Shown: positions 47,579 to 63,983 of the stretch, piece by piece | Position numbering within the stretch: the stretch's first letter is position 1 | Layout of the letters: every line of letters begins with the position of its first letter | NCBI GenBank assembly: GCA_963695435.1 | Contig: OY968788.1 | Coordinates: 349,456 to 413,455, forward strand | DNA length: 64,000 nt | Source of the DNA: an uncultured bacterium | GTDB taxonomy: Bacteria; Patescibacteriota; Kazan-3B-28 | Direction: 5' to 3' | The notes under the pieces: model-generated | Told to the model about the DNA's origin: nothing | The model's database searches: none | Seen by the model: only the letters and a program-made list of their open reading frames with translations | Made by a program: the position numbers and the translations under genes

Positions 47579-49333
47579 TTATTCTTTCTTCGACTTTATG
47601 TACCACTGTGCAATGTTTATAAACCTATCCGTTGTAGATGACAAGTTAATCTTATCAGTTACACCTTTTACTTTCTTGTCCACCAGATAGGTATATTTTG
47701 GCTGATACAGCAAGATAGCAGGAACAAGATCGGCAAAAGCGGATTGAAATTTCAAATAATATGGAATCGCTTTGTTCAAACTAGCGGCAGTACGGGCTTG
47801 TTCCAAATTATTATCAATGTCCTTGTCCACTTCCACCGCCAACGCCAACCCGGGGTCTTTTATTTCACTGCTGTGCCAATAAACATACGGGTCGGAGTTG
47901 CCGCCCAAATCCTGTCCGAAGATCAGTACTTCATAAGCGCGCGGACGAATTACATCTTTAATAAGAGTGGCAACATCCAGCGGTTGAAGAATCGCTTCCA
48001 CGCCAATGCTTTTCCATGTTTGCTGAACTAGTTCTGCTGTTTTACGGGATTTGGCATCATCACGAAAAGCTACTTTCAAACTTAATTTTGTTTTGTTCTT
48101 ATCCAGAATTCCGTCACCATCAACATCCACCCAGCCGGCTTTTTTCAATAAGTTCGCGGCACGGGCGATATCGAATTCATATTTTTTGATATCGGGATTG
48201 TGCCCCCAAAAGCCAGGTAAAATCGGCGAGTCCACTTTTTCAGCATAACCTTGTTCCACTTCATCAATAATTTGCTGCTTGTTGGTGGCGTAGGCTAGTG
48301 CTTGTCGAATAGTTTTATCCGCGAGCAGTGGGTTGCTACCAAGTTGATTGAAGAAGATTGCCTTATATTGTGGCAATGCGAATTTGTAGATCGAATCATT
48401 GGCGGTTGTGCTAAATACCGGCTCGGTAAACCCACCTGCGCTAACTTGACGGTTGCGGAAAGCAGCATAAAGATTCTCGGCGTTGTCAAAGAAGTAAAAA
48501 ATAATGCTTTCGATGTATGGTTTGGTACCATAGTAGTCGTCAAACTTGGTGAGTGTAATGGAAGTATTCAAATCGGATGATTGGTATCTGTACGGACCGG
48601 TACCAATAATTTTCCCCGAATCATATTGGCTAGCCATATCTTTTATCGCAATATCGGCAAAGATATGTTCGGGGATTATCCCCACGGACAGGTCGGTCAG
48701 GAAAAATGCCGAGGGTGCGGGGAGAGTGAACTTGACCGTCAAGTCGTCTAGTTTTTCCACCAAAATTCCGGCAAAGCTGGATTTCAACACACCTGTGTAG
48801 TCATTGTTTTGCAGAGTGTTGAAAGTATAAACCACGTCATCAGCGGTAAAATTTTTACCATCATGCCATTTGGCATTGGACTGCAGACGGAAGAGATAAG
48901 TTTTCCCACCGTCCAATAAATCCCACCCGGTAGCTAGATTCGGCACTATTTCGCGTCCCGTACCTATTTTAGTAAGACCAGAATAAACAAGCGAAGAAAT
49001 ATCTCGGTCAGCCGCGTTCGTGCCAGAAAGCAGCGGATTGATGTATTTCGGGCTGCCAACCAACCCTTCAATATGCACACCTCCGGCAATTGGTTTGACT
49101 TCGCTAACTCCAGCATCAGACAAAGCCAAGATCGCGCCGCCGCCAATAATTACTATGACCAAGCTCGCCAAAATAACTTTTTCGGTAAAAGTAAATTTCT
49201 TTTTCAAATGATTCAACCACAAAACCGCCTCACCAAAAAACTTCTGCATTCCTCCAATAGCGGAGATTGCAGCGTGTTTAGTGCGGTCTACTTTCAGTCT
49301 TTTGACAATGCGAATTTCTGGCTCTTTTTTCAT
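47579..49333 (-). CDS. ABC transporter substrate-binding protein family 5 (peptide/nickel-type) with N-terminal TM anchor
   Basis: 584 aa; SBP_bac_5-like. Confidence 0.7.
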   Translation of the reverse strand: MKKEPEIRIVKRLKVDRTKHAAISAIGGMQKFFGEAVLWLNHLKKKFTFTEKVILASLVIVIIGGGAILALSDAGVSEVKPIAGGVHIEGLVGSPKYINPLLSGTNAADRDISSLVYSGLTKIGTGREIVPNLATGWDLLDGGKTYLFRLQSNAKWHDGKNFTADDVVYTFNTLQNNDYTGVLKSSFAGILVEKLDDLTVKFTLPAPSAFFLTDLSVGIIPEHIFADIAIKDMASQYDSGKIIGTGPYRYQSSDLNTSITLTKFDDYYGTKPYIESIIFYFFDNAENLYAAFRNRQVSAGGFTEPVFSTTANDSIYKFALPQYKAIFFNQLGSNPLLADKTIRQALAYATNKQQIIDEVEQGYAEKVDSPILPGFWGHNPDIKKYEFDIARAANLLKKAGWVDVDGDGILDKNKTKLSLKVAFRDDAKSRKTAELVQQTWKSIGVEAILQPLDVATLIKDVIRPRAYEVLIFGQDLGGNSDPYVYWHSSEIKDPGLALAVEVDKDIDNNLEQARTAASLNKAIPYYLKFQSAFADLVPAILLYQPKYTYLVDKKVKGVTDKINLSSTTDRFINIAQWYIKSKKE

Positions 49334-57462: not shown

Positions 57463-57497
57463 GAAAAAGAGACCCCTTCGGGGTCTCTTTAATTTTC
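57463..57497. terminator. bidirectional terminator AAAAAGAGACCCCTTCGGGGTCTCTTTAATTTT between convergent genes
   Basis: perfect 8-bp stem, tetraloop TTCG. Confidence 0.8.
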
Positions 57498-58882: not shown

Positions 58883-58915
58883 ATCTGAATCATAGCCCCC
58901 AAGCGGCTTATTATA

Positions 58916-58991
58916 TGGTGGGCGGTAGAGGATTCGAACCTCTGACATTCACAACGTCAATGTGACGCTCTACCAACTGAGCTAACCGCCC
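58916..58991 (-). tRNA. tRNA-Val (anticodon GAC), CCA encoded
   Basis: loop TTGACGT, T-loop TTCGAAT. Confidence 0.85.
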
Positions 58992-59020
58992 GTATTTTCA
59001 ACTCCAATAGATTAGCTTTT

Positions 59021-59662
59021 CTACTGGTATTTGCCAAGTACCTCGAGAATGCGGCCGCGGACAGTTTCCAGCGCGTCCTGAAGTTCCTCAATACCGCGGT
59101 TATTGTTAATAATCAAATCCGCTTCTTCTTTCCCCGGCTCGACATATTTATCGTGCATTGGTTGTGCTGAAGTTAGATATTGGTTCAGAGATTCTTCAAA
59201 TGTTCTATCTCGCGTACCAACATCCCGCTCCAATCTGCGAGCCAGACGAATATCGGATTCAACATCAACGAAAATTGTAAGATCTAACAAATCGCGTACT
59301 CGTGGATCAGTCAAAATCAAAATTCCCTCAATAATAATTACTGGCAAAGGCTCGATGTGTTTAGTTTCCGGTTTGCGAGTGTGCTCACCAAAATCATATT
59401 GTGGCATTTCAATCGCCTCGCCTCGCTTTAGCGCGGATAGTTGTTCGACAAACAATTCCTCATCTAGGGCTTTTGGTTCGTCGTAGTTAAGTTCTTTCCG
59501 CTCCTCTAAAGGGATATCATCGTGGCTTTTGTAGTAGTTGTCATGAGACAAAATCAGAATTTTGGTTGGGTCGGCTTTTTGCAGTTCTTGAGCTACATAA
59601 GTTTTGCCCGAGCCGGTACCGCCAGCCACGCCGATAAAAAACGGGGTAATGGTTTTATCCAT
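59021..59662 (-). CDS. udk: uridine kinase
   Basis: GVAGGTGSGKT P-loop. Confidence 0.85.
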   Translation of the reverse strand: MDKTITPFFIGVAGGTGSGKTYVAQELQKADPTKILILSHDNYYKSHDDIPLEERKELNYDEPKALDEELFVEQLSALKRGEAIEMPQYDFGEHTRKPETKHIEPLPVIIIEGILILTDPRVRDLLDLTIFVDVESDIRLARRLERDVGTRDRTFEESLNQYLTSAQPMHDKYVEPGKEEADLIINNNRGIEELQDALETVRGRILEVLGKYQ

Positions 59663-59690
59663 ATACCTATTATGCCATATCTTGGATTCT

Positions 59691-59718
59691 TTACATCTGG
59701 AGCCGAAAAGTGTATGAT
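59691..59718 (+). promoter_or_regulatory. candidate promoter TTACAT-N16-TATGAT for rnpB
   Basis: -10 ends 7 nt before P1 5' strand. Confidence 0.4.
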
Positions 59719-59725
59719 GTGCCTG

Positions 59726-60168
59726 CTCTTTGCAAGTGTGTAACTACCCTGTACCGACGGTATAGGGAGGAAAGTCCGGACACCATTTGGGATTTGGAAA
59801 GTCGCTAACGGCGACCAGGGGCAACCCTAGGGAAAGTGCCACAGAGACTATACTAGTTCTGCTGTAAAGCAGAATGAAAGGTGAAAAGTTGCGGGATGTG
59901 TTGTGTAAAGAATTAGGCCAAACCTAATGATTTGCGCCTCTTGCCACTCGCAAGGTTCCACCGCGAGGTGGAAATTCTGGTAAACCCTTTCCGGTGCAAG
60001 TTGGACTGGACTGAATATGCTAACAACATAAATTCCAATTGAGTATATTCAGACCCCAACGCTTGAGTTCTGGAGCAATCCAGAACCTAGATAGATGGTT
60101 ACTCTACCCGCGTACATTCGCAAGACTGTACAGGGTGAGACAGAATCCGGCTTATAGCTTGCAAAGAG
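59726..60168 (+). ncRNA. rnpB: RNase P RNA (bacterial type A-like), ~443 nt
   Basis: GGGAGGAAAGTCCGGAC (P4 5' strand), ACAGAATCCGGCTTATAG (P4 3' strand), GGTAAACCC; P1 pairing CTCTTTGCAAG / CTTGCAAAGAG. Confidence 0.85.
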
Positions 60169-60172
60169 TTTT

Positions 60173-60200
60173 AAAAAGACCACATTAGTGGTCTTTTTTG
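60173..60200 (+). terminator. intrinsic terminator AAAAAGACCAC-ATTA-GTGGTCTTTTTT after rnpB
   Basis: perfect stem. Confidence 0.8.
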
Positions 60201-60265
60201 ATTACAAATAAATTTTATAAACAACTTCTACAAACAACTCACAGAACAACATCTCCCCATTACGC

Positions 60266-60287
60266 AAAACTCACGATCGTGAGTTTT
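60266..60287. promoter_or_regulatory. perfect 22-bp palindrome AAAACTCACGATCGTGAGTTTT (bidirectional terminator-like or operator) 45 nt after the Cas2-like gene stop
   Basis: read directly. Confidence 0.5.
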
Positions 60288-60331
60288 GGGGAATAATTAG
60301 ATATTTAGATATGTCGATTAAATAAATGTAG

Positions 60332-60817
60332 CTACCAGATGTGTTCGCCGACATACAGAGATACATAGCCCTCAACATCATGATAATCAACTAAATCCTC
60401 TATCCAGTCCTCGCATTTATATCGACTAATCCAGACACTAAGCTGATGTTGTTTGAAACCCAGCATCTTGATGTGACGACGAAACCTATCACGCAACTTG
60501 CGCTCCCCTTCGGGGATATCGAATACCAAAATTCTTATTTTGCCGTCAACGGCCAGTTCTTTTTTAATAATTGGTAGCATTCTAACTGCACCAAGTTGTG
60601 TCAGTCGATAATATTTTCCTTTTGGTTCTAATTCTTGCTCGTAAATCAGTCTATCAACAATTTTCTGAACCTGACGAGGATCCAATAATCGCATCCCCTT
60701 ATATCTAGTGGTCAGAGGGATAGTGAAAAATTCAAACAGACCCGCACCGGTGTGTTTGATAGCACGAATAATAAGACGGCGGACTATATTACGTTGAGTA
60801 TTTTTTGTTTTTGGCAT
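60332..60817 (-). CDS. PaaX-type protein: N-terminal winged-HTH-like region + C-terminal Cas2-like domain
   Basis: KIRILVFDIPEGERKLRDRFRRHIKMLGFKQHQLSVWI aligns with Cas2 core (VVVYDV..RRRR..L..YG.RVQYSVFE). Confidence 0.6.
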   Translation of the reverse strand: MPKTKNTQRNIVRRLIIRAIKHTGAGLFEFFTIPLTTRYKGMRLLDPRQVQKIVDRLIYEQELEPKGKYYRLTQLGAVRMLPIIKKELAVDGKIRILVFDIPEGERKLRDRFRRHIKMLGFKQHQLSVWISRYKCEDWIEDLVDYHDVEGYVSLYVGEHIW

Positions 60818-60824
60818 GTTACTA

Positions 60825-60846
60825 AAAACGTACGATCGTGAGTTTT
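60825..60846. promoter_or_regulatory. degenerate second copy of the palindrome (AAAACGTACGATCGTGAGTTTT) 8 nt upstream of the Cas2-like gene ATG
   Basis: 20/22 match to 60266-60287. Confidence 0.5.
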
Positions 60847-60876
60847 GAGGATAGAAAGTTGTGGGTAAAATAAAGA

Positions 60877-62997
60877 CTAGGCGATGGTGATGGTGATGAT
60901 ACCAGTGTAGTTACCTGTCGCCTTGTTCCATAGACCAGTGAGATCAATTGTGGGCGAAAAATAGAATCCCCCCTTACCATAACCCGCAGAAGCTGCGTAG
61001 GCTGTTCTGGAAGCGTCTAGAGTGGCACCGGTTTGGCCAGTCATATTTGTTGTGACAGAGGTAAAACCGACATTAAGAACACCTGTCGTGGATGTCCATG
61101 TGATATTAGCATGGTCGATAGTGTTTCCTCCATTAGTCATATCAGTACCAGAAACTGATACGGTATAAGCGGAAGCTGTAGAGCGCTTGTCCCAAAAACC
61201 AATCTTCTCGCCGGCAGCAAAGACATACTGCTTGGTATTCGTGCCTACAGTGACACTTCCATAGCTCACGCTGGCAGGTGCAGTGCTTACTTCCAAATCA
61301 TAAGCGGCGGCGGTAGTGAGGGTAGGATAATTATTGCCCACAACAGGAGATACTACACCAGCAGGAGTATCTGTCCCGCCACTATTCTCGATGTAGTAGA
61401 GGCGGAAAAAATATTGAGTGTTGGCGGTGGCACCATTATTTTGGATGGTAAATTCAAATTCTGTGGCGGTGCTGGCGGCAGGATCAAAGGTACTGGAGCT
61501 AGTGCTACCGCCAGTTTCGTTATGAGTACCGTTGGCGGCAGTAGTGGTAAGAAGACGAGTAGTTATCGAAGTGTCGTCAGTGTCAACGCCGTTGTAGTAG
61601 CGCCAAATAACCATTTGACCAACCCCGCCGACATCAGTCGCCGATGAAAAACTATTAGAAGTATCGTATTCCAAATGAAATTTTACATCCGTGCCGGCCG
61701 TCGCCCCAGTTTCCGTTACACCAAAGCGTAATTTTAAAGCATTCCCGTCATAGACTATTCGGGTGCTGGCTGGCGCGTGGCTTTCGGTTCCGATAGTGTC
61801 TCCTGCTAAAATATCAGTCCCTAAGGTGTCGGCAGGGTCAGTCGTTTGTTCGGCATCACACCAGCGCCATTCGGTTGATTTGGGAGTATATACAGCCAAT
61901 TTCTTCGCTACCACCACATCAATATACGCAGGAGTATTGCTCTCGGAGGAGAAGTTGCCGGAGATGGTATGAGTGTGAGCGGCAGCTGTGGCGCCAGGAG
62001 GAGTGGTGCTGGTGGTGACACCCGTTGTGGCACTGGCGCCAAGAGAGACAACACTAAGGGCATGGGTATGAGTGGCGGAGCCTTGTCCGGTCTGGTAGCC
62101 AGTCTGGGCCTCCATAAAAACTTGGTAGAATGCTTCGCCTCCGCCATTGCTAATGATATCCCAGCTGGAGCTGTCAATATTCGGGTCACCATTGAACATA
62201 GCTATCATGCCGGCGGGGATAGCGGTGCCGCCGCTGTTGGTAACAGAGCCCAAGACCACTTCTGTATGGAGAGGGGTATCGTCGTTACTGATAGGAGAAG
62301 TGCCGGTATAGCTGTGGGTATGGGCGCTGGAGGGGCGCGGATCGGTCCCGGAAGCTACAGCAACGGTGGCGCTGGGGCCGCTGGTGACAATGCTTAGATT
62401 AGCATGGGAGTGGGTGTTGGTGCTACTAAAGCCACCAGAAGTAGAATTAAACCTGATCATATAGCCATTTTGACCAGCATAACCGCTAAATCCCGTTCCC
62501 ACGGCGGCATCAAATATAGCGATGGCGAATTGGGGCAGGGTGGTGGGAATACCGCTATCGCAAGAAATGGGGATGAGATCGCGATAAGCAGGCGAAGGAG
62601 TTGCAGTATTCATAGTGAAAGTGGTAAGAGTCGAGTGGGTGTGGATGGTGTTGGAGACAGTAACTCCCGTTCTTGTACGGTTGGCGCCCGTGGAAGACGC
62701 AACCACAGCTACGGTGCCTTGGGTGTGAGTATGAGTGGGGGTGGTGGCGGAGCCAAGGGCCGCATTCCCCCGCGGGAAGTAGCCGGCATAGGTAGCGCCT
62801 GTGCCAACACCCGCAGTCCAGCCAGTAGGGACACTTCCGCCCAGACCGGTATCCCAGAGCAAAATCATTTTCTCGCCGGTAGCGCGAGCTTTTGGGACAT
62901 TACCTGTTTCTAACGGGAACAAATGGGAAAAGCCGGCCACTACCGAGACCGTTATGATAATGACTGTAATACGCTGGAAAAGTTTTGTCCGCTTCAT
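60877..62997 (-). CDS. secreted/anchored 706-aa Thr/Gly/Ser-rich protein with six periodic (S/T/A)-H-(T/S)-H motifs; possible fiber-like surface protein
   Basis: N-terminal signal anchor; PTHTHTQG, IHTHST, NTHSHAN, SAHTHSY, SATHTHAL, AAHTHTIS. Confidence 0.5.
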   Translation of the reverse strand: MKRTKLFQRITVIIITVSVVAGFSHLFPLETGNVPKARATGEKMILLWDTGLGGSVPTGWTAGVGTGATYAGYFPRGNAALGSATTPTHTHTQGTVAVVASSTGANRTRTGVTVSNTIHTHSTLTTFTMNTATPSPAYRDLIPISCDSGIPTTLPQFAIAIFDAAVGTGFSGYAGQNGYMIRFNSTSGGFSSTNTHSHANLSIVTSGPSATVAVASGTDPRPSSAHTHSYTGTSPISNDDTPLHTEVVLGSVTNSGGTAIPAGMIAMFNGDPNIDSSSWDIISNGGGEAFYQVFMEAQTGYQTGQGSATHTHALSVVSLGASATTGVTTSTTPPGATAAAHTHTISGNFSSESNTPAYIDVVVAKKLAVYTPKSTEWRWCDAEQTTDPADTLGTDILAGDTIGTESHAPASTRIVYDGNALKLRFGVTETGATAGTDVKFHLEYDTSNSFSSATDVGGVGQMVIWRYYNGVDTDDTSITTRLLTTTAANGTHNETGGSTSSSTFDPAASTATEFEFTIQNNGATANTQYFFRLYYIENSGGTDTPAGVVSPVVGNNYPTLTTAAAYDLEVSTAPASVSYGSVTVGTNTKQYVFAAGEKIGFWDKRSTASAYTVSVSGTDMTNGGNTIDHANITWTSTTGVLNVGFTSVTTNMTGQTGATLDASRTAYAASAGYGKGGFYFSPTIDLTGLWNKATGNYTGIITITIA

Positions 62998-63983
62998 TTC
63001 TTCTTCCGTTTGCTACTTGTTTTGCTCGTACTCAACCTCGCGGATAGGCGTGGCTGTCCGCTGGTAGTTATGCGTGGATGATACAAAGAAGATTTAAACG
63101 ATAGTAGATAGCTAACGAGAGATGGCATAGTTTCGGTTTCGGATTTACGGTATAGCTCATCAGATGTCAGTGGACGAATTGGAATCATTAATTTGTCTCC
63201 GACATTTAGCGCATAGGGCCAGACCAGCCGGTTGAATCTAACGATTAGTTGGGGCAAAGCGCCTGTTTTTTCGGAAATATGAATAATTGTTTCACCTTTT
63301 GCGATAGTATAAACCTCAACTTTGGTGCGGTATTTATTTCTGTCTTTCCAGAAAGCCAATAAACGGTAGACGAGCCATCCAATGACCAAAAGAATGGCTA
63401 GGAGTGCGAAGTAAATTCCTCCTATCCAGAAACCGAAAGAATATTTAAAAGTCATGTCTGGCAGAGTTTTCTTGCTTCCATCCGACAAGATTTCATCAAT
63501 CGACCATGTGTGTAAAACCAGATTTACCCGATAATAGCCCATCAGCGGAGCGTGTTTTGCCCACGTCTTGTCTATAGTTATCGTACTATTAGGCAGAAAA
63601 GCTCCATTTGAGTTTTCTACTTGGTGATAAGTTCCAAACAATCCTTTTAGGTTAATATCTAGCGCCGGTTCGATATTTATATTGCTTTCGTTGCGGGCTT
63701 GAATATGAAAAATTAATTTCCCATCCTTAATTTCATGAGTGACTTTTTGGAAAGTTAGTTTGCGAACAACCTTCCCCGGCACCGTCACATAAATTCGGGC
63801 ACCTATACGGATTCTTAGCCCGACTCCGTTGGGTGAGTCGGCTGTTTTTTCATAAATTACAATTGCCCCGCTGTGTTGGCCCGGACTGGCATTGTCGGGA
63901 ACTGTGAGATTGAAATTAATGTTAGCAGATTTGCCAGCACCGACTTGAATAGTATTAGTAGAAAGCTTAACCCAATTACCCAA
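62994..63983 (-). CDS. hypothetical protein: beta-rich Ig-like N-region, TM helix, C-terminal LysM domain; N-terminus possibly beyond window (frame open to 64000)
   Basis: TM FGFWIGGIYFALLAILLVIGWLVY; LysM YTIAKGETIIHISEKTGALPQLIVRFNRLVWPYALNVGDKLMIP. Confidence 0.5.
   Translation of the reverse strand: MGNWVKLSTNTIQVGAGKSANINFNLTVPDNASPGQHSGAIVIYEKTADSPNGVGLRIRIGARIYVTVPGKVVRKLTFQKVTHEIKDGKLIFHIQARNESNINIEPALDINLKGLFGTYHQVENSNGAFLPNSTITIDKTWAKHAPLMGYYRVNLVLHTWSIDEILSDGSKKTLPDMTFKYSFGFWIGGIYFALLAILLVIGWLVYRLLAFWKDRNKYRTKVEVYTIAKGETIIHISEKTGALPQLIVRFNRLVWPYALNVGDKLMIPIRPLTSDELYRKSETETMPSLVSYLLSFKSSLYHPRITTSGQPRLSARLSTSKTSSKRKKK

Follow-up and report, generated by a model that had tools for sequence, protein, structure and literature searches.

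Patescibacteria have tiny genomes that encode few recognisable regulators. Here, we describe a small gene from an uncultured member of this group (lineage Kazan-3B-28), located in a stretch of 64,000 nucleotides (contig OY968788.1, positions 349,456 to 413,455) that was analysed as a whole and is referred to below as the window. The 161-residue product is predicted to be a two-domain relative of the repressor PaaX, and its gene is set between two copies of a long palindrome, a layout that is a trait of the protein family. We propose, by analogy with other members of this family and with a probability of roughly one in two, that it is an autoregulated palindrome-binding protein of the PaaX superfamily, for which the upstream palindrome would be the operator, and the downstream palindrome a second operator and possibly also a terminator hairpin. 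We found no paper on a rule that places each gene between paired copies of its own long palindrome, in overlap with a leaderless promoter, and a literature search on PaaX, Cas2-like proteins, VapD-HTH, PF20803 and Patescibacteria returned nothing on this protein family.

The locus comprises the following features, given in window coordinates with the evidence for each in brackets.

60332 to 60817, minus strand: open reading frame (ORF) of 161 aa with an ATG start, encoding a winged helix-turn-helix (wHTH) plus Cas2-like (PaaX_M) protein (ORF list, Pfam PF20803, AlphaFold2 (AF2) model, Foldseek).
60551 to 60817, minus strand: winged-helix-like N-terminal domain, approximately residues 1-89 (AF2, alignment to the family hidden Markov model (HMM)).
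60341 to 60550, minus strand: Cas2-like ferredoxin-fold domain, residues 90-159 (PaaX_M match, Cas2 alignments, conservation).
60266 to 60287, no strand: downstream perfect palindrome, a candidate second operator and possible terminator hairpin (sequence, RNA fold).
60825 to 60846, no strand: upstream copy with two mismatches, a candidate autoregulatory operator (sequence, RNA fold, orthologs).
60260 to 60292, no strand: downstream member, taken as the reference copy, of a 33-nt direct repeat (repeat search).
60819 to 60851, no strand: upstream member of the same 33-nt direct repeat (repeat search).
60248 to 60305, no strand: imperfect outer extension of the downstream dyad, with 29-nt arms that are 76% complementary (repeat search).

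The downstream palindrome, AAAACTCACGATCGTGAGTTTT, is perfect over 22 nt, or over 24 nt (60265-60288) when the flanking C and G are counted, and starts 44 nt past the stop codon; the upstream copy, AAAACGTACGATCGTGAGTTTT, keeps 20 of the 22 bases and ends 7 nt short of the ATG. A first-pass annotation of this DNA had already reported the two bracketing palindromes, which stand, and had placed them 45 nt after the stop and 8 nt before the start, distances that are corrected here. The sequence ACGATCGT has two sites in the entire 64 kb, and these are the pair bracketing the ORF. The 14-nt core CTCACGATCGTGAG, even with up to two mismatches allowed, is found at just these two places, against an expected count of 0.15, and only 1 of 100 shuffled sequences reached two. 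Both palindromes sit within the 33-nt direct repeat, whose members are 85% identical, lie 559 nt apart from start to start and form the longest of three short-range direct repeats in the window. Strong palindromes number eight in the window as compared with 0-2 in shuffles, and AAAACTCACGATCGTGAGTTTT ties for the top score. The deviation in the right half of the upstream copy, CGATCGTAC, recurs in the upstream copies of the orthologs L001, L010 and L013, and the extended downstream dyad folds as RNA at -21.7 kcal/mol. Elsewhere in the window a 25-nt direct repeat, 80% identical, occurs at 48368-48392 and 49300-49324, 932 nt apart. No tandem or CRISPR-like array was found in the 64 kb, and PADLOC, run on 65 window ORFs, detected no cas gene beyond a weak Cas2 match of the 161-residue protein itself. 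A CRISPR remnant was accordingly rejected, and the view that the gene stands alone, and is not part of a CRISPR adaptation module, holds.

Pfam yields a single match for the protein, PaaX_M (PF20803, "PaaX central Cas2-like domain"), at residues 90-159 (63.7 bits against a cutoff of 24; E-value 1.8e-17). The TIGR01573 cas2 model scores 26.4 against a cutoff of 24.5, across 38 residues only, and the Pfam CRISPR_Cas2 model (PF09827) has no match in this protein and sub-cutoff matches in relatives. The PaaX equivalog TIGR02277 reaches 12.6 against a cutoff of 264.55. PaaX_C (PF08223) is found in relatives of approximately 270 aa (L093, L040) and has no match in the window protein, which ends at residue 161; PaaX_M is thus the relevant Pfam model, rather than PaaX_C, which had been suggested as a profile. 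The N-terminal half (about residues 1-89) has no Pfam match. An AF2 model with a predicted local distance difference test score (pLDDT) of 84, low at residues 30-45, places helices at residues 8-23 and 47-59 and a beta-hairpin at 63-72 in this half, and a beta-alpha-beta-beta-alpha-beta order in the C-terminal half. The top Foldseek matches in the PDB are Escherichia coli PaaX (8a39) and Rv0674, followed by many Cas2 chains, including those of type II-A. The match to 8a39 extends over 163 aligned columns, though with a root-mean-square deviation (rmsd) of 7.8 A, and the Cas2 chains superpose at 2.3-2.6 A with a target-normalised TM-score of 0.64. Together with the profile scores, these structural matches bear out the initial description of the C-terminal half as Cas2-like and PaaX-type.

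The family HMM aligns with residues 54-172 of E. coli PaaX, helix 3 and the wing included, and alignments to type II-A Cas2 pair FDIPE with FDMPT and GFKQHQLSVW with GFIMHQFSVY. The protein contains a Cas2-type polar core composed of D100, E103, R109, R113, Q125 and S127. Across 164 family representatives D100 and S127 are invariant, so that the Asp recognised in the first-pass annotation at the catalytic position of Cas2 is a fixed residue of the family, and R109, Q125, F99, R113, P102, E103, D91 and R95 are near-invariant. The wing residues T73 and G76 are likewise near-invariant, in an N-terminal domain that is otherwise variable. When aligned to the family HMM, E. coli PaaX shares the WDGKW entry to beta-1 and lacks the polar core. 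Judged by its sequence, the 161-residue protein is thus a two-domain PaaX relative (probable winged helix plus PaaX_M) that retains Cas2-type residues.

The family is large: at 50% identity and with E up to 1e-3 it comprises 4,697 clusters, most of them of 140-200 aa. One database protein (P0001) is 100% identical to that of the window. Homologs bear the database names "PaaX" or "CRISPR-associated endonuclease Cas2". One homolog that is publicly named "CRISPR-associated endonuclease Cas2" (P0009; CP011216.1 and others) likely exemplifies an over-annotation that is systematic in Patescibacteria, probably arising because TIGR01573 just tops its cutoff on a 38-residue stretch.

The bracketing of the gene by palindromes was examined at 30 scorable loci found through the protein, from Kazan, Paceibacterota, Kaiser-, Zambryski-, Yanofsky- and Uhrbacteria, a gammaproteobacterial metagenome-assembled genome (MAG) and Kiritimatiellales. 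A bracket was called when the 200 nt upstream and the 250 nt downstream of the gene had in common a repeat scoring at least 14. It is present at about 22 of the 30 distant homolog loci; control ORFs of the same loci have a mean score of 8.5, and 7 of 317 reach 14. Close homologs on other contigs have the palindrome right before the start and right after the stop, with the core ACG(A/G)(T/C)CGT and differing arms, and the three-domain forms with PaaX_M and PaaX_C (L093, L040) are flanked by the same palindrome core. Many of the bracketing repeats are palindromes of 34-50 nt that are perfect on one or both sides (38 nt twice in L022, 50 nt in L030, 50 nt twice in L057). The flanking repeats are 33-96 nt long, abut the start and stop codons, and are direct in 15 cases, inverted in 5 and equal in 3. 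Within 233 kb of flanking sequence the repeat of a given locus did not recur, apart from one borderline match in L040.

Centres such as CGATCG and CTATAG are conserved among these palindromes, and the arms are lineage-specific. In a half-site logo the central C-(G/T)-A carries 1.6, 0.8 and 1.1 bits; farther out there are a Y (position -5) and an A/T tract (positions -8 to -11), and the remaining positions vary. The centres are mostly self-complementary (GATC, TATA, GGCC), as expected of a two-fold symmetric dimer on duplex DNA.

The position of the upstream copy relative to the promoter was assessed by scoring -10-like hexamers that end 4-10 nt before the start codon at 43 family loci and 411 control ORFs. 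Such a hexamer is present, mostly at 6 nt, at 26 of the 43 loci and in 19% of the controls (Fisher p = 2e-8), and it falls inside or beside the upstream palindrome. L107 is a clear case, in which the palindrome is followed by TGGTATAAT, 6 nt and the ATG, and in L020, L027, L030 and L040 the palindrome abuts or includes the ATG itself. This geometry fits a palindrome that covers the promoter of a leaderless mRNA, and with such a start the upstream copy would not be transcribed and so would act as DNA rather than RNA. Leaderless genes of this type, in which 6 nt separate the -10 box from the ATG, appear to be common in these organisms; msrA in L101 (approximately 228-244) is another example.

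RNA folding points in the same direction in the window itself. The downstream copy is predicted to form a hairpin of -12.4 kcal/mol (z = -5.2) followed by UUUU, as compared with -13.8 kcal/mol for the terminator hairpin of the nearby RNase P gene, while the upstream copy reaches -2.1 kcal/mol, no better than shuffles, which speaks against the terminator role once considered for it. That 20 of 22 bases are kept in a copy devoid of hairpin potential is counted in favour of a DNA operator. The family-wide bracket and the placement of the -10 box lend strong comparative support to the candidate operator role, which had at first been proposed from the position of the palindromes against the start codon.

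In the mechanism that we propose, the family would consist of small, probably dimeric, sequence-specific DNA-binding proteins combining a variable winged helix with a conserved Cas2-like dimer core, and the two palindromes would be the protein's own binding sites. The upstream site would overlap the promoter or start region, in most of the family a leaderless promoter with a -10 box about 6 nt before the ATG, and binding there would repress the protein's own transcription. The downstream site might serve as a second operator, either through cooperative looping or as a roadblock to RNA polymerase arriving from outside, and in the window it could also fold as an RNA hairpin of terminator strength. 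The centre of the palindrome (C-G/T-A / T-C/A-G, with the A/T tract 8-11 bp out) would be read by conserved parts of the protein, and the lineage-specific outer arms by the variable winged helix. It also counts in favour of this mechanism that two paralogs from one metagenome sample, probably belonging to the same Kazan MAG, have different arms.

Searching metagenome contigs for exact matches to the 22-mer extended the comparison beyond the loci found through the protein. The 22-mer was found on 61 contigs, 12 of which have a PaaX_M gene beside it; four of these 12 have two exact copies, 615-703 nt apart, one on each side of the gene. With the exception of L069 (58%), the proteins so flanked, among which are three-domain forms with PaaX_C, share only 20-32% identity with that of the window. 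On the remaining 49 contigs the 22-mer lies beside unrelated housekeeping genes, at about 50 orphan sites that are mostly at gene 3' ends: approximately 17 have convergent neighbours, approximately 12 have tandem neighbours and one has divergent neighbours. The outer arms that extend past the 22-mer are complementary at 43 of 65 sites and fall into families, for example CCGTYYAYT and GTCACGGA, that are common to gene-flanking and orphan copies within sets of contigs with similar GC contents. On the contig of L001 a single orphan separates miaA from a GT2 gene, and its arms resemble those of the gene-flanking copy. The possibility that orphans are operators of other leaderless genes was rejected, for 1 of 50 fits (msrA in L101).

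Several individual sites deserve mention. The outer-arm variants CCGTCCACT and CCGTTTATT are three C-to-T changes apart and occur in every left/right combination (at L064, L085, L080, L086, L094, L053, L079, L083 and L045); such mixed arms could be hybrid sites, wobble-tolerant hairpins or products of recombination. In L080, 22-mers at 98-119 and 2302-2323 (2.2 kb apart) bracket a radical-SAM/SPASM gene and a gene for a 295-aa protein, and beside each 22-mer about 45 nt of flanking sequence, including TTGACA, are conserved. In L055, a contig of 59% GC that does not resemble the candidate phyla radiation (CPR), long CGATCG-centred palindromes with differing arms lie at 622-659 and 1826-1847, in the thiG-thiH and thiH-trpC gaps.

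The first-pass annotation had treated occurrence of the palindrome downstream of many unrelated genes as the mark of a generic terminator. The exact 22-mer does occur downstream of many unrelated metagenome genes, but it is too conserved, and too enriched beside PaaX_M genes, for that verdict. The notion that the palindromes are ordinary, bidirectional intrinsic terminators that flank the gene by chance, with the protein unrelated to them, can call on the downstream copy in the window, which has the A-tract/stem/T-tract structure of the window terminators at 57466 and 60173, and on the many metagenome copies in short gaps between convergent genes. It does not account for the same 22-mer, with its arm families, on 61 contigs across phyla, nor for an adjoining PaaX_M gene on 12 of them, where a rough, uncomputed expectation would be a few tenths of a percent. 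The pairing of upstream and downstream copies is moreover family-wide with lineage-specific sequence, many palindromes at homolog loci have no T-run behind them, and the upstream copy in the window does not fold. A consensus terminator scan found none in the palindrome region, although the same scan is insensitive and also missed the obvious RNase P terminator. We consider this reading very improbable, and the comparative data largely refute it.

The same orphan sites bear on a second alternative, in which the palindromes act as RNA hairpins that are bound or cleaved by the Cas2/VapD-like domain, with effects on the termination, stability or translation of the gene's own and other transcripts. 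By sequence, the closest matches are Cas2 and VapD relatives, the outer arms vary and yet remain complementary, the orphans are at 3' ends and show a few strand-consistent mismatches of the G.U type, and the downstream hairpin in the window approaches the RNase P terminator in predicted stability. Sequence readout of a long perfect A-form duplex is unlikely, however, and the upstream copies would usually be untranscribed if the leaderless start is right; that of the window has no hairpin in any case. Among the gene-flanking copies, sense-strand G.U mismatches outnumber A.C mismatches by 19 to 11, which is not significant, and the positions that would form the loop are mostly self-complementary, a property that a hairpin loop does not require. 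On balance, we regard an RNA-level function of this kind as improbable.

A third alternative holds that the palindrome-gene-palindrome unit is, or recently was, a self-propagating cassette whose protein acts on the palindromes as a nuclease or recombination factor. The flanking repeats would then be ends, att sites or a duplicated target, and the orphans solo footprints or targets; such a unit would resemble REP/RAYT elements or the repeat duplication by Cas1-Cas2, and would be compatible with self-repression at the ends, as in transposases. Several observations are in line with mobility. Most of the flanking repeats are direct, and they directly adjoin the start and stop codons. The module of L010 lies between a surface-protein gene and an MT-GtrA-GT2 operon, and L110 and L111 have the same junction without gene or palindrome. 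The modules of L064 and L085 are 92% identical over 740 nt, with homology ending inside the upstream palindrome and unrelated flanks beyond it. Contigs from a single sample or MAG hold paralogs at separate loci (L015 and L107; L024 and L033); the first of these pairs, at 4968-5483 in L015 and 5277-5768 in L107, has the centre CGGCCG rather than CGATCG in both modules, with differing arms. The same core occurs in contigs of 29% to 59% GC from several phyla, the orphans have the module's own positional bias, and the Cas2-type polar core is invariant.

These points are opposed by stable synteny across the Kazan-like clade, at 57-67% protein identity, and by the lack of identical multi-copy modules in any genome or contig. 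No HUH or Tyr motif is present, only wHTH and PaaX_M being detected, no target-site pattern was identified, and Cas2 alone is not known to act as an integrase or transposase. Viral contigs and phage records gave no matches, and the plasmid matches are ordinary Rhodococcus PaaX regulators only; with PADLOC and PHROGs yielding only weak Cas2 matches as well, an origin from a phage, plasmid or defence island was rejected. We therefore judge a cassette unlikely, if worth keeping in view. Its more specific form, a minimal self-propagating element that is REP/RAYT-like on a Cas2 fold and whose Cas2-like domain is catalytically active on the palindromes through the D/E/R/Q/S core, appears doubtful. 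In such an element, insertion would duplicate a palindrome of about 33-50 bp, as Cas1-Cas2 duplicates the CRISPR repeat, and recombination between the two copies would cause loss of the gene and leave solo palindromes at gene 3' ends.

Autoregulation by a palindrome-binding protein, the reading that we favour, also has observations to contend with. Simple autorepressors do not usually have a conserved operator downstream of their gene. Most orphans, moreover, have convergent or tandem genes on either side and are not located at promoters, with only 1 in 50 beside a leaderless promoter. Proteins with as little as 20-32% identity to that of the window are flanked by the identical 22-mer, and L057, L060 and L064, which are about 70% identical at the DNA level, have unrelated outer arms; the two findings strain the simple picture of a winged helix that reads the arms. 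The invariant Cas2-type polar core, which is lost in true PaaX, would be superfluous for pure dimerisation. Finally, no convincing -10 or -35 element was seen at the upstream copy in the window, L001, L010 or L069. The promoter region in the window offers a weak TACGTT 9 nt before the ATG, and a promoter scan gave no match at the upstream copy, so that autoregulation in the window itself is proposed by analogy with the rest of the family. Transcription that reads through from the surface-protein gene, which lies 59 nt upstream, may account for part of the gene's expression.

The window, which belongs to a contig of 560 kb, is part of the core chromosome, with ribosomal protein operons, rpoB/C, EF-Tu/G and SecY, as well as glycosyltransferase and surface-protein genes; no paa genes were detected in it. 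A class A RNase P RNA gene (59728-60170, plus strand, 210 bits), followed by its terminator hairpin of A-tract/stem/T-tract structure at 60173-60198, is convergent with the regulator ORF. On the other side lie two minus-strand genes, at 60877-62997, for a 706-aa Thr/His/Gly-rich surface protein with no Pfam match, and at 62994-63983, for a LysM/WxL-interacting-domain protein, a gene pair that is conserved in Kazan-like relatives. Control of these adjacent surface-protein genes by the regulator, as had initially been envisaged, is not supported: the two genes neighbour the regulator only within a close clade, and relatives with the same surface genes can be without both regulator and palindromes. 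Elsewhere no neighbour recurs, and conserved neighbours were rejected as targets on this ground.

The block containing RNase P RNA, uridine kinase (PRK) and tRNA-Val (approximately 58900-60200) has one orientation in the window, L001 and L014 and the opposite one in L013, L016 and L069, and one breakpoint of this inversion adjoins the downstream palindrome. A palindrome-mediated inversion was rejected, as there is no second palindrome at the far end. A GC-rich palindrome, CCCCGAAGGGGCCCCTTTGGGG, follows the module in two relatives, L013 (at +587 from the stop) and L069 (at +450, where it is doubled).

The family of some 4,700 clusters goes by the labels "PaaX" and "Cas2", neither of which fits what the evidence suggests, and the locus points to a mis-annotation, likely systematic, of "Cas2" genes that stand alone with no CRISPR locus nearby. 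The bracket rule offers directly testable pairs of protein and site for uncultivated bacteria. Should the Cas2-type core prove catalytic or the unit mobile, the family would bear on the origin of Cas2 and on how repeat-flanked inserts arise, and if it is indeed a propagating element, it could connect Cas2, PaaX-type regulators and inserts flanked by repeats in evolution.

Among known systems, PaaX is the obvious point of reference. E. coli PaaX is a wHTH repressor of its own promoter that binds a 39-bp spaced palindrome, TGATTC-N27-GAATCA, and dimerises through its middle domain (PMC9493321), and this 39-bp site matches the 22-50-nt palindromes of the family in length scale. Like PaaX, the phenylacetyl-CoA-responsive repressor of the paa genes, the window protein has a Cas2-like domain, preceded by what is probably an N-terminal winged helix. 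It differs in lacking the PaaX_C effector domain (161 aa as compared with 316), in keeping the FDIPE..R..R..Q.S.W core that is absent from E. coli PaaX, in having no paa genes nearby, and in its candidate operator, which is a contiguous, CGATCG-centred palindrome on both sides of the gene.

With type II-A Cas2 (PDB 5zyf, 6qxf) the protein has in common the ferredoxin-like beta-alpha-beta-beta-alpha-beta fold and a motif consisting of a hydrophobic beta-1 that ends in Asp, then GF..HQ.SV(W/Y); unlike Cas2, it is fused to a predicted winged helix, in a window without cas1, any other cas gene or a CRISPR array. VapD, an endoribonuclease toxin with the Cas2 fold (PDB 3ui3), shows weak similarity over the first beta-alpha-beta unit (E 0.04-0.24), whereas the gene described here has no partner antitoxin gene and its product carries an attached DNA-binding domain. 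A parallel in layout is the REP/RAYT system, in which genes for REP-associated tyrosine transposases are flanked by REP palindromes. The two are alike in having a single-copy gene between two lineage-specific palindromes, with further copies at gene 3' ends, and they differ in that the family described here has an unrelated fold without HUH/Tyr motifs and perfect, zero-loop palindromes of low copy number, whose flanking copies are mostly direct repeats.

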